32,000 nucleotides of DNA from an uncultured Enterobacteriaceae bacterium (GTDB lineage Bacteria > Pseudomonadota > Gammaproteobacteria > Methylohalomonadales > Methylohalomonadaceae). Positions 236 to 19,893 of the stretch are shown piece after piece (the stretch's first letter is position 1; each line of letters begins with the position of its first letter). The notes beneath the pieces are model-generated. The model saw nothing but the letters and a program-made list of their open reading frames with translations, was not told the origin of the DNA and did no database searches. The stretch is taken from the NCBI GenBank assembly GCA_964522485.1, contig CAZFUS010000008.1:15042-47041 (forward strand), read 5' to 3'. A program made the translations under genes and the position numbers.

Positions 236-1201
236 TCATTGTTCGAAATTGTTTCGCAGTTCATCAGCGATTTCAAACAGATCAACTACCACTCCATAAC
301 GAGCAATGCTGAATATGGAAGCCTCTGGATCCTTGTTGATGGCGATAATGTTTGGCACATGTTTCATACCGGCCATATGCTGAACAGAACCGGAAATACC
401 CATGGCTATGTAAACGTTGCAGTTGGCCACTGTTTTTCCTGACTGTCCCACCTGCCGTGATTTTGGCAGCCAGCCATTATCAGCAATAGGACGCGAACAG
501 CCCAGCGTGAACCCCATGATATCCGCAAGCTCCTGAAATTTTTCGACGTTATCCTCCTCGTCGATACCGCGGCCAATGGACAGCATGAATTCAGCCTGGC
601 TAATATCGACGTCGCCACCGCCTTCCGGCTCTATATATTCCAGATGCTGAGTATGCACTTCAGCCTGGGGCAGCTCAAAAGCCGTCATTTCGGCGTTACC
701 TTTGTCCTCGACCGGCTTGAAGACATTACCCCGCACCGTAAGCAATATCGTATCCCGGGCCGGAAAATCGAGTTCCATGTGAATTTTCTCCGCGTAAGCG
801 GCGCGGGTTGCCACGAGTTCGTCGTTTTCGTACCTGATGCCGAACACATCGGTGGCAAAACCGTAATTTCCCCGCATAGCGATTACGGGAGCGTAGCTCC
901 ATGCATCAACGCTGTGTGGCACCAGGACAACCGCCGGTTTGCGCTCACTGATGAGGGCACTGATAGCGGCTTCATAGGTGTCTACCTGAAACTCGTCTTC
1001 AGGGGTGGTGATCCTGATAATCTCATCCACTCCTTCCAGATTGAGCCGTTCCGAATATTTATCAGGGTCGCTGGCGAGCACTGTCACCATCAGTGGTTGA
1101 CTTTTTTCCGCCTTTAACTGCCTGGCTGCCGTAATAACTTCGAGACTGGCCGGCGTCAATTCACCCTGACGATGTTCCGATATCACAAGTATGCCGCTCA
1201 T
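236..1201 (-). CDS. etfA: Electron transfer flavoprotein alpha subunit (EtfA)
   Basis: The product is 322 aa from ATG 1199-1201 (MSGILVISEHRQGEL...). The C-terminal FAD-binding region (...YIAMGISGSVQHMAGMKHVPNIIAINKDPEASIF...) is typical of ETF alpha. The start lies 1 nt after the etfB stop. The 360-aa ORF-track form is an N-terminal extension that overlaps etfB. Confidence 0.9.
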   Translation of the reverse strand: MSGILVISEHRQGELTPASLEVITAARQLKAEKSQPLMVTVLASDPDKYSERLNLEGVDEIIRITTPEDEFQVDTYEAAISALISERKPAVVLVPHSVDAWSYAPVIAMRGNYGFATDVFGIRYENDELVATRAAYAEKIHMELDFPARDTILLTVRGNVFKPVEDKGNAEMTAFELPQAEVHTQHLEYIEPEGGGDVDISQAEFMLSIGRGIDEEDNVEKFQELADIMGFTLGCSRPIADNGWLPKSRQVGQSGKTVANCNVYIAMGISGSVQHMAGMKHVPNIIAINKDPEASIFSIARYGVVVDLFEIADELRNNFEQ

Positions 1202-1202: not shown

Positions 1203-2003
1203 TTATGCCGCCCCCTGTAGTTCTTTAATGATTTCAGTGAGACGTGCAGCCTGTTCGGCCGGCGTCCCTTCAATGAACTCTGCCTGACCCTTTTCCGGCA
1301 TAACCATGCGCCTGACACGGGACAAAGAACCTTTCACACCGACATCATCATCCGTCAGACCAATGTCTTCATGCGACAAGACCTCGATCTCCTTGCTTTT
1401 TGCCTGTTTAATGCCACGCAAGGAGGCATAACGCGGATCGTTTATACCGAGTTGTATGGTCAGAACGGCCGGCAGATCGATGGACATCTTCTGTTCCAGA
1501 CCGCCTTCAAGTTCACGGTGTACCGTCGCCCTGGAATCACCCGGTTTCAGTTCCAGATGGTTAACCACGGCCGCATGCGGCCAGCCCAGTCCCGCTGCTA
1601 TATTCATCCCGGTCTGGGCAAATGCATGGTCAGAAGACAGTGTTCCCGCAAAGACAACGTCCGGCTGTTCACGCTCAATCACCTTGACCAGTATTCTGGC
1701 TATGGCGCTTGGATCCGAACCTTCTATGGCATCATCCCATATCCTTATACCGCGTTCGCCGCCTTTCGCCAGGCACCGGCGCAGGGCGTCATCAGCCTCT
1801 TCCGGCCCGACGGTTACAGGAACAACTTCGATATTTTCACCTTCATTGGCTTCCATGATCCGGAGCGCTTCCTCATAGGAATAGTCATCCCATTCATTCA
1901 GTTCATAATCCAGATAATCCGGGTCTACCCCCGTGCCATCCTCAAGAAGTTCAAAGTCTTCATCGAGTGCAGCTATCTGTTTGATCGGCACTAATATCTT
2001 CAT
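1203..2003 (-). CDS. etfB: Electron transfer flavoprotein beta subunit (EtfB)
   Basis: The 266-aa product starts MKILVPIKQ..., and its length and layout match the ETF beta family. It sits immediately upstream of etfA. TMADH is known to use ETF as its physiological electron acceptor. Confidence 0.9.
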   Translation of the reverse strand: MKILVPIKQIAALDEDFELLEDGTGVDPDYLDYELNEWDDYSYEEALRIMEANEGENIEVVPVTVGPEEADDALRRCLAKGGERGIRIWDDAIEGSDPSAIARILVKVIEREQPDVVFAGTLSSDHAFAQTGMNIAAGLGWPHAAVVNHLELKPGDSRATVHRELEGGLEQKMSIDLPAVLTIQLGINDPRYASLRGIKQAKSKEIEVLSHEDIGLTDDDVGVKGSLSRVRRMVMPEKGQAEFIEGTPAEQAARLTEIIKELQGAA

Positions 2004-2009: not shown

Positions 2010-3503
2010 TTACTCCGCTCTATTGGCTTTCATGTTTGAAGTTTCTGCTGATGTCATTTCAAGCGATTTACGAACCAGCATCTGGGTGGCAATAAATCGC
2101 ACCTGCGGCTCAGGATCATCAACCAGTCTGGTGTGTTCCGCCTCAGTAAGCACCGGATGCCTTGCCAGTATCGCCCGATTCAATGGATACGGGTCATCCA
2201 GCAGCATTTTCAGCACCACCAGTGGCGCCTGATTGTTCAGAATCACGGCGCGCCGGATATCCTTGTCGCTGTGTTCCGCTATTCTTTTCAGAATGCTCAG
2301 CGGCGTCGTCGGATTCTGGCCAATGCCGGACAGAATATCCGCGTCTTCCTCTTTCGCCAGTTCCAGGAGAATCGGCTCCGGCAAGTCGTCCCGGAATGCC
2401 ACCCCTGCCCGCACCCAGCTGTTGGGATCCCGGGCCAGCTCGTGCAACAACCCGGCCGGGCACGCCGGGTTGCGTGCCACAGCGCGCCTGACTTCGGCGG
2501 TTTCATCCAGTGCCAGCCGCCGGAGTATGTCTTCGGGCGTTGTGCGGTTCCGGGCCACCCAGCGCCGCACCCAGTGATCCTCGTCCTCTGACAGATGCTC
2601 GATCACGGCTGTTGTCAAGCCGGCCCGCTGGGCCTCGGAACGCCTGACCTGGCGCGAAGGATCATCGGACAGCGCCCCGACTTCCTCCGCCGGCAGCAGC
2701 AGATTGCGCACCGATGCCGCGCGCACCTGCGGCGCCGGGTCATTCAGCAGCCGCACAAGCCGCTCGATCTGTGCCGCCGGATTCGACGCCAGCATCCGCC
2801 GTACCAGTACCTCCTCATCCTTTTCAGCCATCTCCTGAATATCTGCTGGACAATGCTCATTGGCTGCCACCTCGCCACGCAGATACCTATCACCTCGGGC
2901 CCACAGATCGCGCAGCATGATGGCATCGGCATTTGGATGCTTGGCAATCTCCTTGAGCAACTCCAATGGCGCTTCAGCGACAATCTCCGCCAGAATCTCC
3001 CGGCCGGTGTTGGGGTTGCCGCACAGGGCTTTCTGTACCACCGCCGAACCGCGCCATTTCAGCCCTGCCAATAAATCCGCAGGCGCATTTCTGTGAGCGG
3101 CAACTGCCGCAGTGAGCGGTTCTGAACCGTTGTTGCTGACCAGTTCGCGCAGGGTTTCAAGCGGCGTCGCCGGGTGGCGTGCAAGTCGCGCCTTGAAATT
3201 CGGGTCAGCCGCTAAACGGGCCATTCTGGCCAGCACGGAGGCCGGCGTATAGGGTGCAGAGGAAAGCTGACGCCGGCGTTTACCGGTGGCAAACAGAAGA
3301 CTTTCCAGTTCACTGCGCCCGGCAGCATCCAGAAAAGGATGCAATGCCAGCCCAATGTAAATGTCATCCTGATCCACGGCCCGTTTCAGCAGTTCGTCAA
3401 GATACCGATTCCACTTGCCGCTGCCGGACCGTTGCCCGGAGTTACCGCTGATAGCCTGCATCACGCCCGTTACCCGGCTTTCAGACCTGTGCAGAATCTG
3501 CAT
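2010..3503 (-). CDS. Leucine-rich-repeat-variant (LRV) / HEAT-like repeat protein of unknown function
   Basis: A long ORF carries many degenerate ~24-30 aa repeats of the form xVRxxVAxNPxxPxxLLxxLAxDP. Examples are VRRAVARNPACPAGLLHELARDPNSWVRAGVA, QVRAASVRNLLLPAEEVGALSDDPSRQVRR and DIRRAVILNNQAPLVVLKMLLDDPYPLNRAILARHP. No Cys-cluster domain is present. The start is uncertain: TTG 3515, ATG 3503 (used here) or ATG 3461. None of these has a strong SD. Confidence 0.7.
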   Translation of the reverse strand: MQILHRSESRVTGVMQAISGNSGQRSGSGKWNRYLDELLKRAVDQDDIYIGLALHPFLDAAGRSELESLLFATGKRRRQLSSAPYTPASVLARMARLAADPNFKARLARHPATPLETLRELVSNNGSEPLTAAVAAHRNAPADLLAGLKWRGSAVVQKALCGNPNTGREILAEIVAEAPLELLKEIAKHPNADAIMLRDLWARGDRYLRGEVAANEHCPADIQEMAEKDEEVLVRRMLASNPAAQIERLVRLLNDPAPQVRAASVRNLLLPAEEVGALSDDPSRQVRRSEAQRAGLTTAVIEHLSEDEDHWVRRWVARNRTTPEDILRRLALDETAEVRRAVARNPACPAGLLHELARDPNSWVRAGVAFRDDLPEPILLELAKEEDADILSGIGQNPTTPLSILKRIAEHSDKDIRRAVILNNQAPLVVLKMLLDDPYPLNRAILARHPVLTEAEHTRLVDDPEPQVRFIATQMLVRKSLEMTSAETSNMKANRAE

Positions 3504-5628
3504 CAGTCCGGACAACTTTATCGAGTTCCATGCATTCCTCTACCAGTTCAATCAACTCACGGACCTTGATGTTCTTTTCGTTACCTGTTGACTTGACCGA
3601 ATCCTCGAACATGTTCATGCATTTGGGACAACTGACAACAAAAGTATCCAGGCCCTGAATTTCCGCCGCTTCTCGCATGCGGTTTTCCGAGGGTTTTTGC
3701 TTGTCCATGGGATCCGGGGTCCATATGCGGCCGCCTCCTGCCCCACAACAGAAAGAGTTGTCACGGGAACGTTTCATTTCAACAAGGTTGGCGCCCAGCA
3801 TGTGTATCGATTCGCGTGGTGCGTCATAGCCCTTGTTCATGCGCCCCAGATGGCAGGGATCATGAAAAGTTACGGTATTGTTGTTCAGGTTCTTCTTGAG
3901 TTTTATTTCGCCATTCGCAAGCATGTGTCGTATCAGCGTGCTGGCATGCTCGACATCATATTTACCGCCAAATTCCGGATATTCATTTTTTAACGTATTG
4001 AATGAATGCGGATCGGTTGTCACTATCCGCTTGAAATCGCATGACTCCAGCGTCTCGATATTCTCTTCTGCAAGGTGCTGGTACAAACCTTCCTCGCCCA
4101 CCCGGCGGACATCATTGCCGGCAGTCATCTCTGCTTCAAACAAAATACCAAAATCAACACCGGCAGAATGCAATATGCGTGCAAACGACTGCGACACCTT
4201 CTGATAGCGGGGGTCGAAAGAAGCAAAATCACCTACAAACCAGAGCACATCCACCGGCTCCTTGCGCGCATCTTTAATCTCAAAATCCAGTTTTTTGGTC
4301 CAGGCGGGACGCTTGCGTTTATTTTCGCCGAACGAATTGCCTTTCTTCTGTATATGCTGCAACGCAGTCTGGACCGCGGGTTCCATATCACCCTGTTCCA
4401 CCAGCTGGCGCCGCATCTCCACGATCATGGGTACGTGTTCGATGCCCACCGGACAGATTTCCACGCAGGCCGAGCAGGTCCGGCAGGCCCAGAGCGTTTC
4501 ACTGCGGATCTGATTGGGCCCGTCACCCAGTGCCGAAAGCGCCTCCGCTGCAGGCAGCGATCCGCCTTCCAGTTTGTCGGACGCCAGTTCGCGCAGAGAC
4601 AGCACCAGATCGCGCGGTGATAGCGGATAGCCGGTGGCATTGGCCGGACAGGCTTCATGACAGCGTCCGCATTTGGTGCAGGCATCAAGATGAAGCAGGT
4701 GCTTGCTGCTGAAGTCCGCGATGCTGCTATAACCGATTTTATCGCTCTCCAGATCCGCCATGGGCAGCCTGGAAGAAGGTTTCGGATCGCGCATCGACAG
4801 GGACGCCATGGCGGTGAATATATGCTTCACCTTGGTAAAGGGAATCAGGGCTATAAAAGCCAGGGCGAGAACGCCATGGAACCACCAGGTATAAAGACGC
4901 ACAGCCTCACCCGTCTCCGCCGACATGGACAGCCCCTGAAAAAGATAAGCCAGCAGCGTCCCGACCGGCGACCACCAGCGATAATCCCAGACGGTGGGAT
5001 CGTCCGCCAGCCATACCAGCCTGGCGGCCTCGAGTATATAACCTGTAATGGCAATAATAATCAGGGTCCATAAAAAGGCCCAGTCTTCCCGCCGGTAGAA
5101 GGTCCGGTCATAATCGGGGTCCTCCGGACTACGATCGGGGCGCTTGTAATCCAGTTTTGGTAGTGCGAGCCATTTCCGCCGGTACATCATGTACAGCAGG
5201 CCGGCGATCAGCGCCACCCCGGCAATATCCATCACGAGGGAGAACCATAAGTAGAAATCCCCGTACCAGAATGTGAATCCTAACAGCGGTTCGGTAATAT
5301 CATATTCAAGCGTAATGGTTGCTGTGCCAATGAACAGCAACACGAAGCCAAAGAAGATAAGCGCATGGGTATGACCGGCCGCCTTGTCACGACGCTTTAT
5401 CGGTCTGTGAGACAACAGGGCAGAAACCATGTCAACGATCCCGTTCCACAGATTTCTGATTCGTACAGGTTTTCCACGGCGATATTTCCTGATCTGGATG
5501 TAGCATCCGTATATAAAAACGGCTATGGCTAAAATGGCCACCACGTAAAACGACGCCAGCATCCAGCCAGGAAAGTCCTGGAACAATATGCGTGTAACGT
5601 TTTCAGGATCGTGTTGCGGATTGACCAT
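3481..5628 (-). CDS. Membrane-anchored heterodisulfide-reductase-like (Fe-S)-binding oxidoreductase (DgcB / EtfD-like), likely the ETF-oxidising quinone reductase
   Basis: The 715-aa product has a hydrophobic N-terminal ~270 aa with several predicted TM helices. It carries two ferredoxin-type motifs, CTKCGRCHEACP and CRTCSACVEICP. The C-terminal part has CCG-type cysteine-rich motifs (DPCHLGR, FCCGAGGG, VVSCPKC). It lies between tmd and etfBA. Confidence 0.8.
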   Translation of the reverse strand: MVNPQHDPENVTRILFQDFPGWMLASFYVVAILAIAVFIYGCYIQIRKYRRGKPVRIRNLWNGIVDMVSALLSHRPIKRRDKAAGHTHALIFFGFVLLFIGTATITLEYDITEPLLGFTFWYGDFYLWFSLVMDIAGVALIAGLLYMMYRRKWLALPKLDYKRPDRSPEDPDYDRTFYRREDWAFLWTLIIIAITGYILEAARLVWLADDPTVWDYRWWSPVGTLLAYLFQGLSMSAETGEAVRLYTWWFHGVLALAFIALIPFTKVKHIFTAMASLSMRDPKPSSRLPMADLESDKIGYSSIADFSSKHLLHLDACTKCGRCHEACPANATGYPLSPRDLVLSLRELASDKLEGGSLPAAEALSALGDGPNQIRSETLWACRTCSACVEICPVGIEHVPMIVEMRRQLVEQGDMEPAVQTALQHIQKKGNSFGENKRKRPAWTKKLDFEIKDARKEPVDVLWFVGDFASFDPRYQKVSQSFARILHSAGVDFGILFEAEMTAGNDVRRVGEEGLYQHLAEENIETLESCDFKRIVTTDPHSFNTLKNEYPEFGGKYDVEHASTLIRHMLANGEIKLKKNLNNNTVTFHDPCHLGRMNKGYDAPRESIHMLGANLVEMKRSRDNSFCCGAGGGRIWTPDPMDKQKPSENRMREAAEIQGLDTFVVSCPKCMNMFEDSVKSTGNEKNIKVRELIELVEECMELDKVVRTDADSAQV

Positions 5629-5761: not shown

Positions 5762-7969
<2,208 letters not shown>

Positions 7970-8069: not shown

Positions 8070-8819
8070 TTAAATAACAGCAGACTCCGCTGGCCTGTCA
8101 TCTTCCATCGGGTAGGCATATTTATCCCAAAACAGGTTGCCGATGTCCCATCCAGATTCGATCGCCGAATCAATCACATCCGATATAAAACGGCTGGAAC
8201 CGGAAATATACACAGTTACTGAATTATCTTTATCAGCAAAAATATTTCTAATATCAAACGAATGCACTTCAGTGGTTATCAACGTATTGATAGTTAAATA
8301 ATCAAGTGCTTCCCGGTTCAGATATTTAAAAATATCGTCCCTTTGCCTGACTATATGTGCAATTTCATAATTTTTATCCGTAAGACAGACCGTATTCAGA
8401 TGTGACAGAAAAGCGGCAATGCCGGATCCGCCGGCAATAAAATAGGCAGAATTATTATCATTGCTAAAATCAATACCCCGCCGCGGCATTGATATTTTCA
8501 GTCTGTCGCCTATGCGCGCATTCCTGTTAAGCCAGTTGTTTTTACTGTCATTATCAGACGGGCTGTCCACCACAATAATCTGGTAATGATCTGATTCATC
8601 AGGTGAGCTCGTTATGCTATAGGGCGTCGGTTTGTCGCCGGGTCTTAACGGAACACCTACCGCGATATTACTGCCTGCTTCAAAAGCCGGAAGCCTGCAA
8701 CAGTCGGCTGATCTAATCGTGAAACGTTTCGCAGATGCCGATACGATTTCCAGATCAGCAATGTAAACTGGCATTTCTCGCGTTCTTCCCATATTGTCTT
8801 CAACGATATGTTGACTCAC
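8070..8819 (-). CDS. Ferredoxin-NADP reductase-like (FNR/PDR-type) flavin and NAD(P)-binding oxidoreductase without an Fe-S domain
   Basis: The 249-aa product has an FNR-type beta-barrel segment with a xPYS flavin motif (KPTPYSITS) and a nucleotide-binding motif (YFIAGGSGIAAF). There is no CxxxxCxxC ferredoxin cluster. The GTG start overlaps the upstream stop as GTGA (8816-8819). In-frame ATGs at 8792 and 8774 are alternative starts. The gene is very AT-rich. Confidence 0.7.
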   Translation of the reverse strand: MSQHIVEDNMGRTREMPVYIADLEIVSASAKRFTIRSADCCRLPAFEAGSNIAVGVPLRPGDKPTPYSITSSPDESDHYQIIVVDSPSDNDSKNNWLNRNARIGDRLKISMPRRGIDFSNDNNSAYFIAGGSGIAAFLSHLNTVCLTDKNYEIAHIVRQRDDIFKYLNREALDYLTINTLITTEVHSFDIRNIFADKDNSVTVYISGSSRFISDVIDSAIESGWDIGNLFWDKYAYPMEDDRPAESAVI

Positions 8820-9952
8820 TTTCCCTTTTGTCTAAGGCGGAGAGGATCATAAAAAGGCGGCTTAAATACCGTCGCTTCACTGGTAAAATCGCCGCCATGC
8901 ACCTCTACCGACGTGCCTGGTGCGGAAAATTCGGGCTTGATATGAATAAGTGCAAGAGACTGCATTAAATACCGGCTGTAAACGGGTGTCGTGACAAGTC
9001 CCACCTCCTTGCCATCCTTGATTAACTTTGCCCCCTCGGGAGCTGCTTTATCACTCCTGCAGACGATTCCTGTCTGCAGAAATCTCTCTTTCCCTTTCTT
9101 TTGTTGCAAGGCTTTTTTTCCACGGAAATCGTCTCTTTCGACCTCGATTCCCCAGGACATACCATTCAAGTCTACGGCCCATGACATACCCAGTTCCCAT
9201 GGCGTGACATCGCCCTCAGGCATATCAAAAGGATAAAACAGGAGACCGGCCTCAACCCGGCAAAGATCCAGACAGGTGAACGAACAGGGCATTATGCCGA
9301 ACTCGGCACCTTCATCTAATATGGTGTCCCATAACTCGACAGCGTCATCGCTGGAGCAGAAAATCTCGTAGCCACGCTCGTGCGAATACCCTGCTCTGGA
9401 AATCAAAACATCTTTACCGAACAGCTTGCTCTTTTTATGATGAAAGTAAGGAAGTTCAGACAGTTCAATACTTGTATGGGGCGAGAGCAGATTTAACACC
9501 TGCGGACCTTGTACTGACAATATATGCACATCAGCATCCCTGGATATTGTTACATTCTTCCCTTTTGAATATTCTTCCAGGACCTCTTCGGCATCACCGT
9601 CACCATGGGTGGCTCGATACTGATTCTGATCATCACAGTAGACCAGGAAATCATCCGTAATGGCTCCTTCTTTATTGCACAGACATCCCAGTCTTGACTG
9701 TCCCGGCTTAAGCACTGACATGTCCGCTGCCTGCATGGCATTGATGACTTCAAGCGCATCTGGTCCAGTGATATTGATAACCTGCAGACAGGTAACATCC
9801 CACAGACCGACGCGTGACCTTACCGCGACATGCTCATCATCAGGATTTGTGTTATAAAGCCAGGGCACTCCCATATTCCATAACGGCTCCTCAAAACTGG
9901 CGCCAAGCTCTTTATGCCTGCTGTACAGAGCGTTATGTCTTAATTCAGTCAT
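8816..9952 (-). CDS. Aminomethyltransferase (GcvT) family folate-binding protein, a putative THF-dependent C1-capturing or demethylase component
   Basis: The 378-aa product starts at ATG 9950-9952 with a GGGAG SD 6 nt upstream. It has GcvT-like architecture: LYSRHKELGASF..., HVAVRSRVGLWDVTCLQVINITGPDALEVIN..., KPGQSRLGCLCNKEGAITDDFLVY. The ORF-track TTG 9973 start is less likely. Confidence 0.8.
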   Translation of the reverse strand: MTELRHNALYSRHKELGASFEEPLWNMGVPWLYNTNPDDEHVAVRSRVGLWDVTCLQVINITGPDALEVINAMQAADMSVLKPGQSRLGCLCNKEGAITDDFLVYCDDQNQYRATHGDGDAEEVLEEYSKGKNVTISRDADVHILSVQGPQVLNLLSPHTSIELSELPYFHHKKSKLFGKDVLISRAGYSHERGYEIFCSSDDAVELWDTILDEGAEFGIMPCSFTCLDLCRVEAGLLFYPFDMPEGDVTPWELGMSWAVDLNGMSWGIEVERDDFRGKKALQQKKGKERFLQTGIVCRSDKAAPEGAKLIKDGKEVGLVTTPVYSRYLMQSLALIHIKPEFSAPGTSVEVHGGDFTSEATVFKPPFYDPLRLRQKGK

Positions 9953-10071
9953 TGCCTGCTCCCGATATTTCAACTATATGCGCTTGATACCAAGACTTTT
10001 TCGGAAAAAGTCAAATAAAATTCAGGGCCCTATTTCAGGATTTTCAATCATGTACTCATGCCCCGAAGAGC

Positions 10072-10360: not shown

Positions 10361-11602
10361 ATGCCTTTGGGTTTAATTAAATATGGGCTTTCCAAAAAAT
10401 ATCCTGCTCGACGGGACATACCGCCGAATAAGGACCTGAAGAATTCCTACGACGTAGTTATTATCGGCGCTGGCGGCCACGGCGCATCGATTGCATACCA
10501 TCTTGCCCGTTATCAGGGCATTACGAATGTTGCGGTTCTTGATAAAGGTTATCTGGGTGGTGGCAACACAGCACGGAATACAGCAGTCATTCGTTCCAAC
10601 TACATAACCCCGGACTCAGTCAACTTCTACAAGGAATCCGTTGAGTTATACAAACAGCTGTCGAATGAGCTGGGTTATAACATGCTTTATTCACAGCGTG
10701 GACAGCTGACCCTCGCACATTCTGATGCAAGCATGCGCACATTCAGATTACGCGCTGAAGTCAACAAGCATTGTGGCGTGCGCTCAGAAATGGTTGATCG
10801 GGATCAAATAAGAGAAATCGTCCCTTGCCTTAACCTTGACAGGCATGCTCGTTTCCCGATTATCGGTGGCCTGTGGCACCGGGACGGTGGCACTGCCCGT
10901 CACGACTCCGTTGCCTGGGGATACGCCATGCGTGCCTCACAGCTGGGCGTAGAATTCCATCAGCGAACCGAAGTAACAGGTATCCAGAAGGCCAATGGGC
11001 GGGTAACAGCAATCGACACCAATCGCGGCACTATCCACTGCAAGGATGCAGTACAAGCAGTTGCCGGAATGAGCAGTGTGATCGCCAGAATGGCCGGAAT
11101 AAGACTGCCGATCAGAACCTTTCCTCTACAGGCTATGGTAACGCAACCGCTGAAACCGTTCATCGACCCGCTGGTCAGTTCTGCTGCGTTGCATTGCTAT
11201 ATATCACAGACAGCCCGGGGCGAGATTGTTATTGGTGGAGGATCTGATCCTTATGACCTTTATTCGACACGCTCGACGCTCGAACTCAAGGAGGGCCTGA
11301 TTGCACATATGCTGGAAATGTTTCCGTTTATGAGCGAAGTAAAGCTGCTTCGGCAATGGGCGGGCATGACGGACATGACTCCGGACTACAGTCCGATCAT
11401 GGGAGAAAGCCCGTTACAAAATTACTGGCTGGATGCCGGATGGGGTACCTGGGGTTTCAAAGCCACCCCCGTAGCAGGCAAACGTATGGCTGAAACTGTA
11501 GCCACCGGCAGGGTGCCTGATCAAATCAAGCCATTCAGTCTCGCAAGATTTGCGACTTACCAATTATCTAACGAAGCCGGAGCTACGGCGGCGAGTCACT
11601 AA
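10361..11602 (+). CDS. soxB: Sarcosine oxidase beta-subunit family flavoprotein (heterotetrameric SoxBDAG type), in this context likely N-methylglutamate dehydrogenase subunit MgdA
   Basis: The 413-aa product has an N-terminal dinucleotide fold (YDVVIIGAGGHGASIAYHLA) and the motifs GGGNTARNTAVIRSNY and GGLWHRDGGTARHD, the last being the region of the covalent-FMN histidine in SoxB. A GAGGGAG SD lies upstream. It is followed by delta, alpha and gamma genes. Confidence 0.9.
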   Translation: MPLGLIKYGLSKKYPARRDIPPNKDLKNSYDVVIIGAGGHGASIAYHLARYQGITNVAVLDKGYLGGGNTARNTAVIRSNYITPDSVNFYKESVELYKQLSNELGYNMLYSQRGQLTLAHSDASMRTFRLRAEVNKHCGVRSEMVDRDQIREIVPCLNLDRHARFPIIGGLWHRDGGTARHDSVAWGYAMRASQLGVEFHQRTEVTGIQKANGRVTAIDTNRGTIHCKDAVQAVAGMSSVIARMAGIRLPIRTFPLQAMVTQPLKPFIDPLVSSAALHCYISQTARGEIVIGGGSDPYDLYSTRSTLELKEGLIAHMLEMFPFMSEVKLLRQWAGMTDMTPDYSPIMGESPLQNYWLDAGWGTWGFKATPVAGKRMAETVATGRVPDQIKPFSLARFATYQLSNEAGATAASH

Positions 11603-11620
11603 ACAGCAGGAGTTTTCTGC

Positions 11621-11920
11621 ATGAAGATTATGCATTGCCCACTGAATGGTCCACGCAATATATCGGAATTTGCATCAGGCGGAGAAGTTACTCAGATGCC
11701 GGAACCATCTGAAACTGACGATCAGGCCTGGGCCGAGTACATATGGATGCACAATAACACTGCGGGAGTTGTAACTGAATGGTGGTGCCATGTACCCACC
11801 TCTTACTGGTTCCTTGCCGAACGCAACACGGTTACTGACGAGATTCTTCGCACTTATCCCGCCAATGAGAGATACAGGGAACGCATAACCTTCGCAGCGG
11901 GTCCGGAGAAGAAAAAATGA
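11621..11920 (+). CDS. soxD: Sarcosine oxidase delta-subunit family protein (MgdB-like)
   Basis: The 99-aa product starts MKIMHCPLNGPRNISEF..., which resembles the zinc-ribbon-like SoxD N-terminus. An AGGAG SD lies 8 nt upstream. Its stop overlaps the next start as ATGA. Confidence 0.85.
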   Translation: MKIMHCPLNGPRNISEFASGGEVTQMPEPSETDDQAWAEYIWMHNNTAGVVTEWWCHVPTSYWFLAERNTVTDEILRTYPANERYRERITFAAGPEKKK

Positions 11921-14865
11921 ATGGTATTGACAATACCAGCTCTTCCGGTACCGAACGCGGGACCAACACGCAATCCCGCAATGGCCTGTTTATTGATTCT
12001 TCTAAAATTATTGAGTTTTATTTTGAAGGACGAAAATACCAGGGGCATGAAGGCGATACCATAGCCAGTGCTTTAGCGGCTAATGGTGTCTGGCTGCTGG
12101 CCCGATCATTTAAATATCACCGTCCCAGAGGAATACGTTCTCTTGCAGGACTTGAAGCCGATCCTCTGGTGCAGCTTGAATATGAGCCGAATGTTCAGGC
12201 AGACAGTTATCCAATCTCGTCCGGCATTGAAATATATGGACAAAATTACAGCGGCAGTCTCGAAAATGATCGGCTGGCCATTATGGGTCTGTTCAGCCGC
12301 TTTATGCCTGTCGGTTTCTATTACAAGGCATTCTTCCGCCCCAAAGGCATCTGGCAGAAATTCTGGGAACCCTTAGTCAGGCGCAGTGCCGGACTCGGCA
12401 AGGTCAATCTGAAAACGCCACACGGTTACTATGACAAAAGCTACAGCTTTTACGACGTAGTGGTTATAGGAGCAGGACCAGCCGGCCTGTCCTCTGCAAT
12501 TGCCGCCGCGCGGGCCGGAGCCGAGGTGTTGCTAATTGAACGGGAAAGGAAAATCGGCGGTTCGCTTAATTATTTTCGCTTTGATGTGAACAATAAAATG
12601 GCGGCTAAAATCCGCGACGAACTTCTCAGCGAGCTGGACAGCCTGCCGAATATCGAAGTAATGACCGAGGCCAATTGCAATGCATGGTATGCGGATAACT
12701 GGCTGCCGATCATCAAGGAAAACCGCCTTTACAAAACCCGTGCAAAGGAAGTCATCCTTGCCACCGGTTCCATGGAACAGCCTGCTGTATTCAGGAACAA
12801 TGATCTGCCCGGTATTATGCTGGGTTCCGGTGCGCAGCGCCTTTTGAACCTCTATGGCGTCAAACCGGGAAAACGGGCTGTAATTCTTACCTGCAATTCC
12901 CACGGTTATGGCGTTGCGCTCGATTTACATGATGCAGGCGTAGACGTTGCTGCCATTATTGATATGCGAGTTGATATAGCGGAAGACGAATTTACCGAAG
13001 CGGCCAGAAGCAGCGGCATCAGAATTGAGAAGAACTCGACCGTCAGTGAAGCAATTCCAATATCCAGAAACAAACATATCAAGGGCGTCCGCGTAGCGCC
13101 CATTACCGGTCAGGGTAAATATGGTCAAAACAGCAGCGAAATTGACTGCGATCTCCTGTGCATGAGTATCGGCTATACACCGGCTTACCAGTTAGCCCTG
13201 CAGGCCGGAGGACAGCTCGAATACGATGATGCTAACGCTATTTTCGAGATTACCGGCACGCCAGCTCATCTTCGGCTGGCAGGTTCAACAGATGGGATTT
13301 ACGAGCTGAACGCTGTCAGGATCAGTGGCCAGCATGCCGGATGGCAGGCTGCAACCGCTTTAGCCCTTGAAGCCGGCGACGAACCCCGACTGCCGGCTGA
13401 AAAGGGGCAACAGGGCATCAATCATCCATGGCCGATATTTCCCCATCCCAAGGGCAAGGAATTTGTGGATCTGGATGAAGATCTTCATTACGCCGATATC
13501 GTGAACGCCTGTGCAGACGGATATGCAGAGCTCGAACTGGTCAAGCGCTATTCCACGGTTGGCATGGGTCCGTCCCAGGGTCGTCATTCCGCCCTGAGCA
13601 CGGCCAGAATTGTAGCCATGGCAACCAACAGAAGTGTTTCTGAAACCGGCGTTACTACTGCACGCCCGCCCCTCGCTGCTGAGAAGCTCGGTGTACTGGC
13701 GGGCAGGTCTTTTGAACCTGAGCGATTAACGGCAATACATCACCGGCATATGGAATCCGACGCTACCATGATGAATGTTGGTTTATGGTGGCGCCCGGCC
13801 TATTACGGTAGCAGCCAGCACAAGGCAGACTGCATTCAAAATGAAGTCCTGACCATCCGCAATAATGTCGGACTGATTGATGTTTCCACCCTGGGCAAAA
13901 TCAGGATTCGTGGCAGCGATGCTGCCGAGTTCCTCAACCGTATGTACACATTCGCTTATTTAAAGCAGCCGATCGGACGCGCCCGCTACTTATTGATGAC
14001 AAATGAGGCAGGCACAATAACGGATGACGGTGTGGCCGTACGCCTGTCAGATGACAGCTTTTATATAACGGCAACCACTGGCGGTGTTGATAACGTCTAC
14101 CGGGCCATGCTCTGGTGGAATGCCCAGTGGCGCCTTGATGTTGATATAACCAATGTGACAGCGGCCTATGCAGGCGTCAATATTGCCGGCCCCGGCTCCC
14201 GTGAGGTTCTGGAGAAGCTCTGTCCTGACATCGACTTATCAGCGCAGGCCTTTCCCGCCAATGAAGCGCGAACCGGCACGGTAGCTGACATACCTGCATA
14301 TCTTATACGCGTGGCCTTTGTTGGTGAGCTTGGCTATGAAATTCATGTACATGCCTCACAGGGGGAGGCACTCTGGGATAACCTGCTGGAGGCTGGCAAG
14401 TCACACGATATCAAGCCTGTCGGCATTGAAGCGCAGCGAAATCTGAGGATGGAGAAAGGCCATATTATTGTCGGCCAGGACACCGATGCCATGACTTATC
14501 CCGAGGAATGCGGCATGGGCTGGGCTGTAAAGTTCGATAAGCCTTTTTTTGTTGGAAAACGCTCACTTGAAATCCGCGCCAGATATCCCTCAAAACGCAA
14601 GCTGGTCGGCTTTGAAATCAAAGACAAGTCGATCGATATGCCGGAGGAATCAAACATTGTACTTCATGGCAATACCATTACGGGTCATGTGACATCAGTT
14701 GCCCGCTCTCCAGTACTGGATAAAGTCATCGGTATGGCCTATGCCAGATCAGACACAGAACCAGGTGACACTATTACCATAAAACTGACCAATGGCCAGA
14801 TAATTAATGCCGGTGTCGTCTCTATGCCCTTTTACGATCCGGAAAACAAACGCCAGGAGATGTAA
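11917..14865 (+). CDS. soxA: Sarcosine oxidase alpha-subunit family protein (MgdC-like) with a folate-binding GcvT-like C-terminal half
   Basis: The 982-aa product carries GDTIASALAANGVWLLARSFKYHRPRGI, a dinucleotide motif [14 protein letters not shown], and a C-terminal aminomethyltransferase-like region (LIDVSTLGKIRIRGSDAAEFLNRMY...). Confidence 0.9.
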   Translation: MNGIDNTSSSGTERGTNTQSRNGLFIDSSKIIEFYFEGRKYQGHEGDTIASALAANGVWLLARSFKYHRPRGIRSLAGLEADPLVQLEYEPNVQADSYPISSGIEIYGQNYSGSLENDRLAIMGLFSRFMPVGFYYKAFFRPKGIWQKFWEPLVRRSAGLGKVNLKTPHGYYDKSYSFYDVVVIGAGPAGLSSAIAAARAGAEVLLIERERKIGGSLNYFRFDVNNKMAAKIRDELLSELDSLPNIEVMTEANCNAWYADNWLPIIKENRLYKTRAKEVILATGSMEQPAVFRNNDLPGIMLGSGAQRLLNLYGVKPGKRAVILTCNSHGYGVALDLHDAGVDVAAIIDMRVDIAEDEFTEAARSSGIRIEKNSTVSEAIPISRNKHIKGVRVAPITGQGKYGQNSSEIDCDLLCMSIGYTPAYQLALQAGGQLEYDDANAIFEITGTPAHLRLAGSTDGIYELNAVRISGQHAGWQAATALALEAGDEPRLPAEKGQQGINHPWPIFPHPKGKEFVDLDEDLHYADIVNACADGYAELELVKRYSTVGMGPSQGRHSALSTARIVAMATNRSVSETGVTTARPPLAAEKLGVLAGRSFEPERLTAIHHRHMESDATMMNVGLWWRPAYYGSSQHKADCIQNEVLTIRNNVGLIDVSTLGKIRIRGSDAAEFLNRMYTFAYLKQPIGRARYLLMTNEAGTITDDGVAVRLSDDSFYITATTGGVDNVYRAMLWWNAQWRLDVDITNVTAAYAGVNIAGPGSREVLEKLCPDIDLSAQAFPANEARTGTVADIPAYLIRVAFVGELGYEIHVHASQGEALWDNLLEAGKSHDIKPVGIEAQRNLRMEKGHIIVGQDTDAMTYPEECGMGWAVKFDKPFFVGKRSLEIRARYPSKRKLVGFEIKDKSIDMPEESNIVLHGNTITGHVTSVARSPVLDKVIGMAYARSDTEPGDTITIKLTNGQIINAGVVSMPFYDPENKRQEM

Positions 14866-14869
14866 GCGC

Positions 14870-15583
14870 ATGTCGGAGAATCTTGCACAGCCCGCTGATT
14901 TCAAAGTCCGCAGTTTTCATTACCGAACACTGCTGGCCGACGGTGCCCACTTTACTGAATTTTCCGGTTGCGCAATAGCGTCCGGCTACGGAGCCTCCAT
15001 TGAAGAAGAGTCCGCCCAGGCCAGGGAACTCGGTCTTGCTGATCTGTCACCACTGCCAAGAACCGGTTTCAAAGGCCGCCGGGCACTTGAATGGCTGAAA
15101 CAGGCAGACCTGCAGATGGGTGATGACAACAACTTCTCATGGCTTCAGGACAGTGGTTCCATAGTAGCCAGACTTGCCAATACAGAAGCACTCATTTTGA
15201 GTGATCTGGCTAACAATTCAGGCATTTGTGCCCAGCTTGATAACAGAGTGACCAAAGAAAAACCCGAATCCTGTTATCACGTTCCCCGGCGTGAATCATC
15301 TGCATGGTTTCTGGTTACCGGCACCTGTGCAGACATCATGTTTGCAAAAATATGCGGCGTTGACATGAGAAGAACCAAATTCCCCTCCGGCAGGGTTGCC
15401 CAGACTTCCATGGCGCGCATGAATGTCATCAGTATACGGAGCGATTTGGGAGACGTGCCCGCCTATCATCTTATTTTTGACAGTGCCTCGGCTGATTATC
15501 TGTGGCGAATGCTAAAAGATGCCATGACCGAATTTGGCGGCAAACCGGTTGGTTATGATGCGATAGCCGACATAATACGGTAA
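14870..15583 (+). CDS. soxG: Sarcosine oxidase gamma-subunit family protein (MgdD-like)
   Basis: The 237-aa product starts at ATG 14870 (MSENLAQPADFK...), 4 nt after the soxA stop, with an AGGAGA SD. Position and size fit SoxG. The ORF-track start at 14807 would overlap soxA by 59 nt. Confidence 0.8.
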   Translation: MSENLAQPADFKVRSFHYRTLLADGAHFTEFSGCAIASGYGASIEEESAQARELGLADLSPLPRTGFKGRRALEWLKQADLQMGDDNNFSWLQDSGSIVARLANTEALILSDLANNSGICAQLDNRVTKEKPESCYHVPRRESSAWFLVTGTCADIMFAKICGVDMRRTKFPSGRVAQTSMARMNVISIRSDLGDVPAYHLIFDSASADYLWRMLKDAMTEFGGKPVGYDAIADIIR

Positions 15584-15694: not shown

Positions 15695-15864
15695 ACCACG
15701 AAGAGTCACACGATTATTCATTACATAATCATGGCTTTAGTTTAACGGTGGGAAGTGGTAGCGATCATGCCTGCCTGGACATCGTGATCATTTCCCTGAA
15801 AGTCACAGGGGTTTACATGGACGTACACAAAGCCGCCTGAAAATATCTTCACAGGAGGATGATC

Positions 15865-17133
15865 ATGGGCATTACTCGACGTGATTTGATTAAGGCAACG
15901 GCCTCAGGCGTTGTTTTAAGCGGTATCGGCTTACCTTTCTCGACTCTCAGGGCCGAGTCAAAAACGGTCAAGATCGGTTTTCTGGCACCGTTGACCGGCG
16001 AAGTCTCTGCATGGGGCTTGCCGGGTCTTTACGGCGCAGAAATCTGGGCCGAAAAGATCAACAAGACCGGTGGCATCAACGTTGGGGGCGAAAACTACAT
16101 GGTGGAGATCGTCTCCTTCGATAATGAATATGCTCCCGAAAAGGCGCTGCAGGGATATCGGCGTCTCGTGTCGGAGGACGACGTCAAGCTCATCATGATG
16201 CTCGGTGGCGATACCTGGCCGGCAGTACAGAGGTTCGCCAACCGTTCCAAGATGCTGACCTCGACGCTGTTGCCAAGCGATCTTTCTCCCGACACTCCCT
16301 ATCTGATTGCGCCCTGCGAGGTGCATCCCATCTATAATGTGACCGGTGTCGAATGGATGGCCGAACAATTCGGTGATCTCAAGAAAGTTGTCATCACTGC
16401 ACAGAACGATTCCCTCGGCCTGCCCTCGGTGGCAACCTACAAGGCCGCGTTCGAGGCCGCCGGTCTGGAAGTGGTCGGCCAGAACCTGTTCGATCCCGCC
16501 ACCACCGACTTCGCGGCAGTCACGGGATCACTGCTGGCCAACAACCCCGATGTCGTCTGCCTGGACACCTGCTACGCCGACTACGTCAACCTGCTGTGCG
16601 AACAGCTCTACCAAAAGCGGTTCAAGGGCAAGATCATTTCCTGCACGCTGGACACCTATCCGAAGATCATCGAGAAGACCAGCCAGGAATGGCTGGACGG
16701 CACGATCTTCCAGTTCCCGGATTTCGACGATCCGATGATGGAAAAGGACTTCATCAACTTCCCGAATCCTAAAGAGTTCCAGGAAGCCTATGACGCCCGG
16801 CATCCGGGCACCTGGACCGCTGTGTCCTGGGAATATGCTTCCATCATGGACCTGTGGAAGACCGCCGCCGAGGAGGCCGGCAGCGTCGAACCCATGGACG
16901 TGCTGGAACAGATGAAGGCCGGCGGCACGGCCCCGCATGCGTTCGGCGATGCCAAATGGTGGGGCGAGGAACTCTGGGGCATCAACAACGCCCTGGTGGG
17001 CAACTGGCCGGTGGTCGCACTGGATGGCGGCAAGGCCCGTATTCAGGCCTTCAAGAGCATCCCCGAATGGTGGGGCAAGCATGGCGACCTGCTGCTCAAG
17101 CACATGAAGGAGATGGACCTTCTGAGAACCTGA
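15865..17133 (+). CDS. ABC transporter periplasmic substrate-binding protein (Liv/HAAT, type I PBP) with a twin-arginine signal peptide
   Basis: The N-terminus MGITRRDLIKATASGVVLSGIGLPFSTLRA carries a Tat motif. VKIGFLAPLTGEVSAWGLPG... is typical of LivJ/K-like binding proteins. An AGGAGG SD lies 6 nt before ATG 15865. The ORF-track ATG 15859 directly abuts that SD. Confidence 0.85.
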   Translation: MGITRRDLIKATASGVVLSGIGLPFSTLRAESKTVKIGFLAPLTGEVSAWGLPGLYGAEIWAEKINKTGGINVGGENYMVEIVSFDNEYAPEKALQGYRRLVSEDDVKLIMMLGGDTWPAVQRFANRSKMLTSTLLPSDLSPDTPYLIAPCEVHPIYNVTGVEWMAEQFGDLKKVVITAQNDSLGLPSVATYKAAFEAAGLEVVGQNLFDPATTDFAAVTGSLLANNPDVVCLDTCYADYVNLLCEQLYQKRFKGKIISCTLDTYPKIIEKTSQEWLDGTIFQFPDFDDPMMEKDFINFPNPKEFQEAYDARHPGTWTAVSWEYASIMDLWKTAAEEAGSVEPMDVLEQMKAGGTAPHAFGDAKWWGEELWGINNALVGNWPVVALDGGKARIQAFKSIPEWWGKHGDLLLKHMKEMDLLRT

Positions 17134-17168
17134 CGCCAGCCACGTCTTTATCACTAATATGTGCTACG

Positions 17169-17197
17169 GGAGCCCGGACAACCTTTGTTCGGGCTCC
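17169..17197 (+). other. Intercistronic hairpin after the binding-protein gene
   Basis: GGAGCCCG (17169-17176) pairs with CGGGCTCC (17190-17197) around a 13-nt loop, with no T tract. This resembles the RNA-stabilising hairpins often found after ABC binding-protein cistrons. Confidence 0.4.
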
Positions 17198-17223
17198 TCA
17201 GCTCAAGTCTCAGGGGAACAGGA

Positions 17224-18093
17224 TTGGAACTTGTCATCCAGACTATTGTAAATGCAATAGTACAGAGTGGATTTTTTGCACTGACTGCTGTCGGTCTGGT
17301 TCTGATCTTCGGTGTGCTCGGCATTATCAATTTCGCCCACGGCGAGTTTTACATGGCCGGAGCTTTTACCGTCTGGTACCTGTACTCGATCCTGGGATGG
17401 CCGTTTCCGATCGCGGTCACATGCGCATTCCTGCTGGTCATGACGATCGGTATCGTCATGGAACGATTGCTGTTCCGGCCCATGCGTGACAATCCGCTCG
17501 GCGGCCTGATCATGTCGATCGGCGCCCTGTTCATACTCCAGGTCCTCGCGGTCAAGATCGGCGGTGTAGGCCTGATGAAACACGTGCCCGCCCCCTATCG
17601 CGGTACACTGAACATCTACGGCGATGTAGTAGTTGCAAATCAGAAGCTGGTGGCCCTTATCGTGGCGGCCGCACTGCTGTCATTCATCTGGTATTTCCTG
17701 ACCTACACGAGGCTTGGCTGGGCGCTGCGCGCAGTTGCCCAGGACCATGAGGCCGCTTCCTTGCAAGGCATCAGCATCAACAGGATTTCCATGATTGCCG
17801 TCGGTCTCGGCGCTGGCCTGGCCGGTGTCGCCGGCGGCCTGATAGCGCCGATGGCCCGCGTCGAACCCTACATGGGTCATCACGCCATAATCACTGCTTT
17901 CATCGTGACCATCGTCGGCGGACTCGGTAGCCTGAGCGGCGCCGTACTGGCCGCGATCCTGTATGCGTTCTTCCATACCTTTGTCACGACCTATTACGGC
18001 GGCACAATCGCAACCATGCTCGGTCTTTTGATCATGCTGCTTGTCCTGATCATCAAGCCAACCGGACTGATGGGTACACGGGTCAACGAGTAA
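17224..18093 (+). CDS. Branched-chain-amino-acid-type ABC transporter permease (LivH-like)
   Basis: The hydrophobic product begins ELVIQTIVNAIVQSGFFALTAVGLVLIFGVLG, matching the usual LivH N-terminus. I favour TTG 17224, which has AGGGGA 7 nt upstream. The ORF-track GTG 17161 would make the 17169-17197 hairpin coding. Confidence 0.8.
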   Translation: MELVIQTIVNAIVQSGFFALTAVGLVLIFGVLGIINFAHGEFYMAGAFTVWYLYSILGWPFPIAVTCAFLLVMTIGIVMERLLFRPMRDNPLGGLIMSIGALFILQVLAVKIGGVGLMKHVPAPYRGTLNIYGDVVVANQKLVALIVAAALLSFIWYFLTYTRLGWALRAVAQDHEAASLQGISINRISMIAVGLGAGLAGVAGGLIAPMARVEPYMGHHAIITAFIVTIVGGLGSLSGAVLAAILYAFFHTFVTTYYGGTIATMLGLLIMLLVLIIKPTGLMGTRVNE

Positions 18094-18098
18094 GAACA

Positions 18099-19085
18099 AT
18101 GAATACGCGTATCAAAACCATCATCGGCCTGTTCATACTGTTCGGGGTGCTGTCCGCGCTTCCGTTCGGACTCAAGCTCTGGCAGCAGGATTTCATGATC
18201 TTCCTGCTCATCAATATTCTCGTCGCCGTCAGCTACCGCCTGATGACCCTGACGGGGGAATGGTCGCTCATTCACGCGGTGCTCTGGGGCGCCGGCGGCT
18301 ACGGCAGCGCACTGCTTATGAAGGAATGGGGCTGGTCGTTCTGGATCGCCATGCCGGCCGCCGGTCTGATCACCGCCTCGATCGCCCTGATCCTGAGTTT
18401 TCCGCTGTTCCGCATGAAGGGATTCTTCTTTCTTATCGGATCATTCGCCATCGGCGAGGCCATCCGCCTGAGCTGGAACTATTTCCAGGTGCCGTTCGGC
18501 GGCCCCCGGGGACTGCAGTTGATCCCGTCGCCGGAACTCTGGATCCCGGGCGCCGGCATTATCGAGATATGGAATCCCGTGCATTATTACTTTATGACCC
18601 TGATCATTGTGTCGCTCTGCCTGTTGATACTGTACCGGCTGGAGCATTCCAGGATCGGCATGACGCTGAACGCCATTCATTGGCGTGATTCACTGGCGGA
18701 ATCCGTCGGCGTCAACACCTTCCGGTACAAGACGGTGGCATTCATGATTGCGTCATTTTTTGTCGGTATCGCCGGCAGTCTGTTCGCCCATTACCTGGGA
18801 TCGCTGAATCCGCATCAGTTCGAGGTCTCGGCCATGGTCTTCATCCTTGTCTGGGTAATCGTCGGCGGCACGAATACCTTTGCCGGGCCCATCATCGGCG
18901 TAACCGTGCTGTCCGTACTCAATGAATTCTTCCGTCAGGCCGAAGAATGGCGGCCGCTGATTTACGGCGTCATCCTGATCCTCAGCATACGTTTCATGCC
19001 GGATGGTATCGACAGCCTGCCGGGACGCATCCGACAGTATCTGGCCCGGCGGCGGGAAGGCAGCGGACAAGCAGTCAATGCCTGA
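18099..19085 (+). CDS. Branched-chain-amino-acid-type ABC transporter permease (LivM-like)
   Basis: The 328-aa polytopic membrane protein starts 5 nt after the LivH-like stop. Confidence 0.85.
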
Positions 19086-19112
19086 AGATTCCCGGCCTGT
19101 GGCTGAATCTTC
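19083..19112 (+). other. Intercistronic hairpin between the permease and ATPase genes
   Basis: TGAAGATTC (19083-19091) pairs with GAATCTTCA (19104-19112), giving a 9-bp stem and a 12-nt loop. The hairpin overlaps the LivM-like stop codon. Confidence 0.35.
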
Positions 19113-19892: not shown

Positions 19893-19893
19893 C

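Follow-up and report, generated by a model that had tools for sequence, protein, structure and literature searches.

The trimethylamine dehydrogenase (TMADH) and electron-transferring flavoprotein (ETF) of Methylophilus methylotrophus W3A1 are the textbook model of interprotein electron transfer. As far as we know, and in the literature consulted, it is presented as a system of two proteins, with no mention of a gene for EtfD or for a leucine-rich repeat variant (LRV) protein; the route taken by electrons past ETF, and any helper proteins, lie outside that picture. Here we describe an LRV gene, hereafter lrv, that is found within a tmd-etf operon in a 32,000-nucleotide window (the whole stretch of DNA analysed, positions 15,042 to 47,041 of contig CAZFUS010000008.1 from an uncultured bacterium of the GTDB family Methylohalomonadaceae). 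The TMADH and ETF encoded in the window are orthologues of the W3A1 proteins, and the system extends the known TMADH-ETF-EtfD chain by a separately encoded solenoid component.

The closest structurally characterized relative of the LRV protein is from Azotobacter vinelandii (PDB code: 1LRV), with which it shares the repeat family (profile E-value 9.4e-15, and Pfam LRV and LRV_2 matches). The 1LRV protein has 244 residues and carries an N-terminal 4Fe-4S domain; we know of no function for it, nor of any link to ETF or EtfD. The protein described here differs in having 15 repeats, no Fe-S domain and 3 cysteines. In overall shape the best structural match is the A subunit of protein phosphatase 2A (PP2A; PR65), an elongated solenoid that holds at least two partners on a conserved ridge and which may serve as a model, with the reservation that the PR65 repeat spans about 39 residues and the LRV repeat is shorter, at 26.

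The third relevant system is the mycobacterial EtfD. In the M. smegmatis protein, a linear 3Fe-4S cluster (D1) and a non-cubane cluster (D2) have been described (Courbon et al. 2026, PMC13083937). EtfD was reported there to purify without bound ETF; AlphaFold 3 predicted that ETF docks via the disordered C-terminal tail of EtfD, and DgcB and FadF are without such a tail (PMC13083937). How ETF docks on EtfD was thereby left open, especially for the tailless EtfDs.

Conserved position of lrv between etfD and etfB

The gene in question is the following.

2010 to 3503, minus strand: lrv, encoding a 497-residue LRV/HEAT-like alpha-solenoid protein (assigned from Pfam, an AlphaFold2 (AF2) model and alignment)

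The tight placement of lrv between an EtfD-like gene and etfB, as given in the initial annotation, is confirmed. The stop codon of lrv is the TAA at 2012-2010, and the etfB ATG (2003) begins 6 nucleotides (nt) past it; with the ATG at 3503 as start, lrv overlaps the stop of the EtfD-like gene (3483-3481) by 23 nt. The true start is uncertain, as TTG 3515, ATG 3503 and ATG 3461 are all candidates; the product has about 480 to 497 residues. Residues 1-27 have a mean column identity of 0.15 and are modelled as disordered, and the N-termini of the orthologues lie mostly 2-20 residues ahead of the first helix. Start and stop codons of lrv overlap or abut those of the neighbouring genes; in Azoarcus, for example, lrv shares 17 nt with etfD at its start and 4 nt with etfB at its stop.

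Among 5.8 billion proteins searched, about 30 clusters of full-length orthologues with 33-97% identity were found. They are unnamed or 'hypothetical protein' in every annotation examined, and the latter is also the RefSeq name of WP_074966978.1 from Paracoccus aminovorans JCM 7685 and of WP_015451872.1. Genomic context was looked up for seven orthologues, among them one from a Methylophilus metagenome-assembled genome (MAG) and one 370-residue form, and in all seven the order is EtfD-LRV-EtfB-EtfA as far as the contig allows. A scan of GTDB, at one genome per species and queried with an 11-sequence orthologue alignment, identified 20 species with a full-length relative (34-63% identity). Carriers are found among the Gammaproteobacteria, including the cultured Methylohalomonas lacus, the Betaproteobacteria (Methylotenera) and the Alphaproteobacteria (Hyphomicrobium, Rhodobacteraceae). 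By tblastn, lrv lies directly upstream of etfB-etfA in all 20 of the GTDB species and directly downstream of etfD in each of the 18 for which the contig is long enough. The same is seen on plasmids and chromids, where all seven records with an EtfD of at least 60% identity carry an adjoining lrv (Paracoccus aminovorans, with two records, Azoarcus sp. KH32C, Cupriavidus oxalaticus and three Paraburkholderia), and in metagenomes, where lrv is directly upstream of etfB-etfA at 34 loci. Paracoccus aminovorans JCM 7685, Methylohalomonas lacus, Paraburkholderia phymatum and Azoarcus sp. KH32C are carriers that have been both cultured and sequenced.

Every context-examined orthologue with an E-value of about 1e-60 or better sits between etfD and etfB. 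Weaker LRV matches (at most 30% identity over partial coverage; P0033 and L027-L038, for instance) are found in unrelated contexts, and the tmd-linked LRV family therefore has a clear boundary. The initial annotation had proposed a survey of tmd/etf clusters in other genomes and would have abandoned its idea had homologues been scattered without linkage to etf or tmd; homologues are present, and the orthologues are strictly linked.

One metagenome contig (ctg836508_38x_l, 2.43 Mb) carries the tmd-etfD-lrv-etfBA arrangement twice, at 198533-219978 (locus L003) and 2421132-2434286 (L004). The LRV protein is identical in the two and one copy reaches the contig end; either an assembly overlap or a true duplication is possible.

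The invariant unit is etfD-lrv-etfB-etfA. The TMADH gene is mostly directly upstream of this module, with the exception of loci L006, L052 and L056, in which it is downstream of etfA. In a Hyphomicrobium MAG the module is preceded by a TetR gene (TetR-etfD-lrv-etfBA) and its flanks encode unrelated functions; no TMADH gene was found in this 21-kb locus, which extends beyond the module by about 7.8 kb on the upstream side and 8 kb on the downstream side. Over 41 non-redundant loci, the pairwise distances of LRV proteins correlate with those of EtfD, EtfB and EtfA with r = 0.84 and with those of TMADH with r = 0.51 (partial correlation for TMADH, -0.12), and these sequence distances are weak evidence in favour of EtfD-ETF over TMADH as the partner. 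The constant partner of lrv is the EtfD-ETF module and not TMADH. At six loci (L021, L024, L061, L069, L071 and L074) two TMADH-family genes surround a single etfD-lrv-etfBA module, their products being roughly 72-76% and 62-66% identical to the TMADH of the window; the pair presumably represents TMADH and a dimethylamine dehydrogenase (DMADH)-like enzyme that share one set of ETF, EtfD and LRV proteins.

Predicted fold of the LRV protein

The protein was scanned against Pfam, where it matches LRV (PF01816; 70.9 bits, cut-off 21.6), LRV_2 (PF25591; 60.4 bits, cut-off 27) and HEAT (PF02985), and nothing else was matched. The HEAT match reaches 31.1 bits for the whole protein (cut-off 23.5) and comprises a single stretch. 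No NCBIfam family covers the protein; a match to SpbR was disregarded, with 17 bits against a cut-off of 400. The sequence can be arranged as 15 consecutive 26-residue units that are in register throughout, with consensus P.tP..iL..La.D.d..VR..vA.N, and this repeat block extends from about residue 84-88 to 473-479, following N-terminal cap helices. The three cysteines are each at a repeat-consensus position and none are clustered. The Pfam scan shows no Fe-S domain, the N-terminus being unconserved and disordered, and no cofactor motif was found by Pfam or in the alignment. A hydrophobic segment was likewise not found, as no 19-residue window has a Kyte-Doolittle value above 0.98.

The AF2 model, built on a 27-sequence alignment, has a pLDDT of 90.3 and a pTM of 0.80 and forms a continuous helical solenoid from residue 28. 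It comprises 34 helices, in a DSSP summary that counts alpha and 3-10 helices together, and from residue 88 onwards is organized as 15 helix pairs with a period of 26 residues. The nearest solved structures to the family profile are 1LRV and designed alphaRep binders. A Foldseek search with the model returned generic HEAT scaffolds, of which the best is the PP2A A subunit (E-value about 1e-7); TM-scores for these A-subunit matches are as low as 0.3-0.4, with 13-17% identity. By profile and fold the protein is thus a member of the LRV repeat family, not of the Fe-S type seen in A. vinelandii, and its likeness to HEAT scaffolds is one of fold class and not of family membership. In these respects the initial annotation, which had called a repeat protein with neither cofactor motif nor N-terminal Fe-S domain and had suggested structure prediction, is borne out. 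Sequence and model together indicate a soluble, non-catalytic, protein-binding type of fold.

The orthologue alignment contains 33 invariant columns. Of 58 near-invariant columns, 38 fall within repeats 9-15, the conserved core; among them are the family-specific W311, W363 and Y439 together with ladders of arginine, of which the protein has 52 in total. The 370-residue orthologue (P0030; L119:6001-7113) is found on several contigs, one of them of 226 kb, and has the same operon position as the full-length form. It is without some five middle repeats (query residues around 105-226) but retains the N-terminal cap and the C-terminal repeats.

Neighbouring genes and type of EtfD

The genes that flank lrv are as follows.

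236 to 1201, minus strand: etfA, ETF alpha subunit (ETF and ETF_alpha domains), with its ATG at 1201, separated from the etfB stop by 1 nt
1203 to 2003, minus strand: etfB, ETF beta subunit, orthologue of W3A1 ETF-beta (match to PDB 1O94 chain C)
3481 to 5628, minus strand: etfD-like, 715 residues, with N-terminal transmembrane helices, two 4Fe-4S motifs and two CCG domains (Pfam and PDB 9OJN)
5762 to 7966, minus strand: tmd, trimethylamine dehydrogenase, 734 residues, orthologue of the W3A1 enzyme (PDB 1DJN/2TMD)

All five genes, tmd, etfD-like, lrv, etfB and etfA, are thus closely packed on the minus strand, and the identities of the neighbours by Pfam and NCBIfam match those originally assigned. 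In sequence comparisons with solved structures, the TMADH matches W3A1 TMADH (1DJN) with 1292 bits, and EtfB matches W3A1 ETF-beta (1O94_C) with 345 bits; for the EtfD-like protein, the match is to M. smegmatis EtfD (9OJN), with an E-value of 1.7e-75. Pfam assigns to the EtfD-like protein a Fer4 domain, two CCG stretches and a weak match to the nitrate reductase gamma subunit (a putative b-haem domain), and 37 of its Kyte-Doolittle windows are hydrophobic with values above 1.6.

The cluster ligands of the EtfD-like protein were checked by alignment to the residues named in PMC13083937. The D1 ligands Cys503, Cys538, Cys581 and Cys584 of M. smegmatis correspond to D467, T502, D539 and S542, whereas those of the non-cubane cluster D2 are retained (H541, C592, C627, C628, C667 and C670), as are both cubane 4Fe-4S motifs. 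The C-terminus ends some 15 residues beyond the second CCG domain, with no long disordered region. With D1 ligands absent, D2 kept and a short C-terminus, the protein is therefore an EtfD of the type of FadF and of DgcB, the latter from dimethylglycine catabolism in Pseudomonas. More distant EtfD modules (Haloterrigena and Agrobacterium, 39% identity) differ in that an LRV gene is absent and the genes run etfB-etfA-etfD. The place of its gene beside tmd and etfBA points to the EtfD-like protein as the physiological acceptor of the TMADH-specific ETF, and it is likely to be the quinone reductase of the TMADH-ETF chain.

In one subclade of loci with lrv, EtfD bears a C-terminal low-complexity extension of 40-100 residues rich in Ala, Glu, Lys and Pro, giving lengths of 795-803 residues in L015, L018, L045 and L047 and of 740-762 residues in L017, L022 and L044. 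Of these, L015 is labelled as uncultured Gammaproteobacteria and L017 and L018 as Pseudomonadales MAGs. Some of the extended proteins end in a conserved SQW.RFEAKM.AYRAA motif. The extension is reminiscent of the disordered tail of mycobacterial EtfD.

A possible adaptor for ETF and EtfD

The mycobacterial tail (PMC13083937) offers a parallel for the LRV protein. It is likewise an accessory, non-redox element that is predicted to dock ETF beside EtfD, and lrv lies directly 3' of etfD, often overlapping its stop, where a tail-like function would be encoded. The two differ in that the tail is disordered and fused to EtfD, and the LRV protein is separate, folded and of 50 kDa, with no relation in sequence; for both, the docking role is a prediction. 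We consider it possible, with somewhat less than even confidence, that the LRV protein is a soluble alpha-solenoid adaptor in an EtfD-ETF module that serves trimethylamine and dimethylamine dehydrogenases. What we infer here is that the protein binds ETF or EtfD, which of them it binds and how this affects electron transfer: the conserved surface of the C-terminal repeats 9-15 would bind ETF, the cytoplasmic Fe-S domain of EtfD, or both, the strongly acidic ETF would be held at its membrane acceptor, and transfer from ETF through EtfD to quinone would be made efficient. In this it would resemble the disordered C-terminal region, of about 30 kDa, of the mycobacterial EtfD, for which such a role is predicted. 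The strongest outside argument for an adaptor comes from PMC13083937, in which ETF is not retained by EtfD and its predicted contact is a tail that EtfDs of the DgcB/FadF type do not have. Here a short EtfD of this type adjoins a gene for a separate 50-kDa protein of a binding type, and this translationally coupled solenoid is a concrete candidate for the docking of ETF.

A stronger version is that the LRV protein is a dedicated coupling subunit, by which ETF, and perhaps TMADH too, would be assembled on the DgcB-type EtfD into a membrane-associated electron-transfer complex. This we regard as unlikely. If it were true, the protein would supply the ETF-docking element that short EtfDs are missing and would be the missing link from the textbook TMADH-ETF pair to the quinone pool, and a first function would be given to a bacterial LRV-repeat protein.

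Composition, selection and age of lrv

The initial annotation had pointed to the high G+C content of lrv and had considered a recently acquired insertion. Its hand counts are exact for lrv (44/60 at 2401-2460 and 40/60 at 3001-3060), and in a recount the 60-nt samples from etfB give 26-40/60. Overall, the G+C content of lrv is 0.60, compared with 0.51-0.56 in the neighbouring genes. At third codon positions (GC3), however, lrv (0.657) is within the range of its neighbours (TMADH 0.671, EtfD 0.606). The excess is in the first and second codon positions because the protein is rich in Gly, Ala, Arg and Pro, which together make up 34.5% of its residues versus 26-29% in the neighbouring proteins. 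A foreign origin based on G+C content was accordingly rejected.

Ratios of non-synonymous to synonymous substitution (dN/dS, Nei-Gojobori) were taken from close pairs of loci in which dS is unsaturated. For lrv they are 0.126, 0.169, 0.134 and 0.184, with an overall range of 0.05-0.18, and lrv is therefore under purifying selection, which is strongest on the C-terminal repeats. In the same comparison the four neighbouring genes give 0.006-0.08, so that selection on lrv is 3-10 times more relaxed. Distances between LRV proteins are 2.8 times those between the corresponding EtfDs.

That lrv is a recent insertion, a functionless passenger or an untranslated frame we now regard as highly improbable. 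Such a view would account for a G+C content above that of the neighbours and for the absence of lrv from many orthologous clusters. It is contradicted by a position conserved in three proteobacterial classes (Gamma-, Beta- and Alphaproteobacteria) and in all basal EtfD clades, by purifying selection and ordinary GC3, which together refute the insertion, and by the 33 invariant columns and the confident model. The gene is a real and conserved one, and an old accessory part of the EtfD-ETF chain.

Loci without lrv

A metagenome scan that was seeded with EtfD and not with LRV provided 80 loci (EtfD identity 61-86%), in which the junction between etfD and etfB was classified as follows.

LRV present: 34 loci
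etfD and etfB 0-101 nt apart, no LRV match anywhere in the locus: 38 loci
contig end or unclear: 8 loci

In a neighbour-joining tree of EtfD, every basal clade has lrv, and a large derived clade from soil and peat is uniformly without it; three loci checked from this clade have a G+C content of 0.63-0.67. A tree of EtfB and EtfA places L072 and L098 in the clade without lrv as well, and in it L046 (G+C content 0.41) is nested among relatives that have lrv and represents a separate loss. The most economical reading of these trees is that lrv was ancestral to the EtfD-ETF module and was later lost at least twice. One locus without the gene, L108, encodes the same trimethylamine/dimethylamine pathway, with an amino-acid permease, a DmmABC-like dimethylamine monooxygenase and a GCV_T protein. 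The LRV protein is thus accessory to the chain and not obligatory for it.

On the metagenome contig whose EtfD is the closest (86% identity; L039:3237-4433), no LRV or etfB match is seen in the 1.2 kb downstream of etfD, where an unrelated minus-strand open reading frame (ORF) of 188 residues is found. A rearrangement or a chimeric contig may account for this layout, or it may be a third type of architecture.

The clade without lrv has fixed changes at otherwise conserved columns in ETF (4 of 153) more often than in TMADH and EtfD taken together (1 of 560; Fisher p = 0.009). In EtfA, T156A, I201M and S273A are fixed at columns with a conservation of 95% or more among loci with lrv, and S273 lies within GISGSVQH, which we take to be a flavin-binding motif. 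On the EtfD tree these changes could be read as convergent after loss of lrv. This was rejected, as the ETF tree puts L072 and L098 inside the clade without lrv and the independent loss L046 keeps T, I and S at positions 156, 201 and 273; the EtfA changes are for these reasons markers of one lineage only.

These data bear on an alternative role as an assembly or maturation chaperone, in which the LRV protein would bind a nascent partner transiently and aid the loading or retention of a cofactor without being part of the working complex. Candidate cofactors would be FAD or AMP in the case of ETF, the haem or the non-cubane Fe-S cluster in that of EtfD and, for TMADH, its covalent 6-S-cysteinyl-FMN. 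Linkage speaks for a chaperone just as it does for an adaptor. The 2.8-fold faster evolution relative to EtfD and the higher dN/dS suit a helper protein, whole lineages could more readily do without a helper than without a subunit, and the fixed changes in the clade without lrv are concentrated in ETF, although all of them belong to one lineage and L046 does not repeat them. All-HEAT lyases, CpcE/F, attach bilins to cysteine, and recombinant TMADH from E. coli is mostly flavin-free. However, TMADH flavinylation is regarded as autocatalytic, and the linkage to EtfD-ETF rather than to TMADH weakens the flavinylation version in particular. W3A1 ETF has been produced in E. coli in the absence of any helper, and Pfam identifies no nucleotide- or cofactor-binding motif in the LRV protein. 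On balance we consider a chaperone function, the chief alternative to an adaptor, to be rather doubtful.

Evidence against an adaptor and a regulatory alternative

Several observations weigh against the adaptor that we tentatively favour. The first is the absence of lrv from 38 of the 72 resolved EtfD-seeded loci, which otherwise look identical; the protein therefore cannot be indispensable, and a strict requirement for it in docking is excluded. No replacement repeat protein was found in L108. Secondly, the C-terminal tails of EtfD, which are acidic in most loci with lrv and contain Pro and Arg in the clade without it, do not track the presence of the LRV protein, L049 and L046 being nearly tailless. 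An EtfD C-terminal peptide specific to loci with lrv was considered as a ligand and rejected, since L049 (with lrv) and L046 (without) both have no tail. Thirdly, the net charge of the LRV orthologues varies from -13 to +21, so that charge complementarity between ETF (net charges -25 and -23) and the arginine ladders of the LRV protein gives weak support. No fusion of LRV to EtfD or ETF was seen among the best 150 of 25,873 profile matches; the long matches, examined as candidate Rosetta-stone fusions, were generic multi-repeat LRV proteins and were set aside. The W3A1 TMADH reduces ETF efficiently in vitro without a third protein, and we know of no description of W3A1 TMADH or ETF co-purifying with a partner of about 50 kDa. 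Finally, gene order alone cannot separate docking from a chaperone role.

The initial annotation had proposed an assembly, docking or membrane-tethering factor for the whole chain. Such a factor would be compatible with the strict linkage, with three amendments: its constant partner would be the EtfD-ETF module and not TMADH, it cannot be indispensable, and a membrane-tethering role of the LRV protein itself is unlikely. The protein has no hydrophobic segment, and EtfD is already anchored in the membrane.

A further alternative is that the protein is a regulator, which would sequester or inactivate ETF in the manner of mitochondrial ETFRF1/LYRM5, or gate electron flow according to redox or substrate state. 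A non-catalytic binding fold, membership of the operon and dispensability are all compatible with regulation, and nothing is specific to it. Against it, the LRV protein has no sensor or DNA-binding domain by Pfam, the clusters have regulators of their own (TetR, FCD-domain of GntR type, or two-component), and translational coupling suggests near-stoichiometric synthesis. We consider a regulatory function improbable.

The W3A1 system

The ETF-beta encoded at metagenome locus L064 differs at 3 of 264 positions from the crystallized W3A1 protein (PDB codes: 1O94 to 1O97 and 3CLR to 3CLU), and the gene order there is TMADH-EtfD-LRV-EtfB-EtfA. The same five-gene arrangement is present in a Methylophilus MAG whose ETF-beta is about 95% identical to that of W3A1. 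From these two gene orders, the W3A1 TMADH-ETF system therefore almost certainly carries lrv directly upstream of etfB, and its operon very probably also carries a gene for a DgcB-type EtfD. No literature that links LRV or HEAT proteins with TMADH or ETF, or that refers to lrv, was found, within a scope that did not extend to subscription journals, including the W3A1 cloning papers of the 1990s.

The tmd-etf operon is shown here to hold two further conserved genes, for a DgcB-type EtfD and an LRV protein, and very probably does so in the textbook system itself. The case from guilt by association is strong, yet dispensability in some lineages is proven, and the natural presence and absence of lrv, with at least two losses, provides ready strains for comparison.

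Other features of the window

Upstream of tmd, a 249-residue ORF with no Pfam match (8070-8819, minus strand) lies between tmd and a gene of the GCV_T family (8816-9973), which overlaps it by 4 nt. The ORF is not a conserved part of the cluster, because it is absent at the equivalent place in L001. The region 8816-31644 forms a methylated-amine utilization island. In addition to the GCV_T aminomethyltransferase, it encodes subunits resembling sarcosine oxidase and N-methylglutamate dehydrogenase (10361-15583), a branched-chain-type ABC transporter (15859-20601, GC3 0.70-0.77), a TPR protein, an N-formylglutamate amidohydrolase and N-methylglutamate-synthase-like proteins (24318-27547), a glutamine-synthetase-like protein (27565-29034), a DAO oxidoreductase and FolE2.

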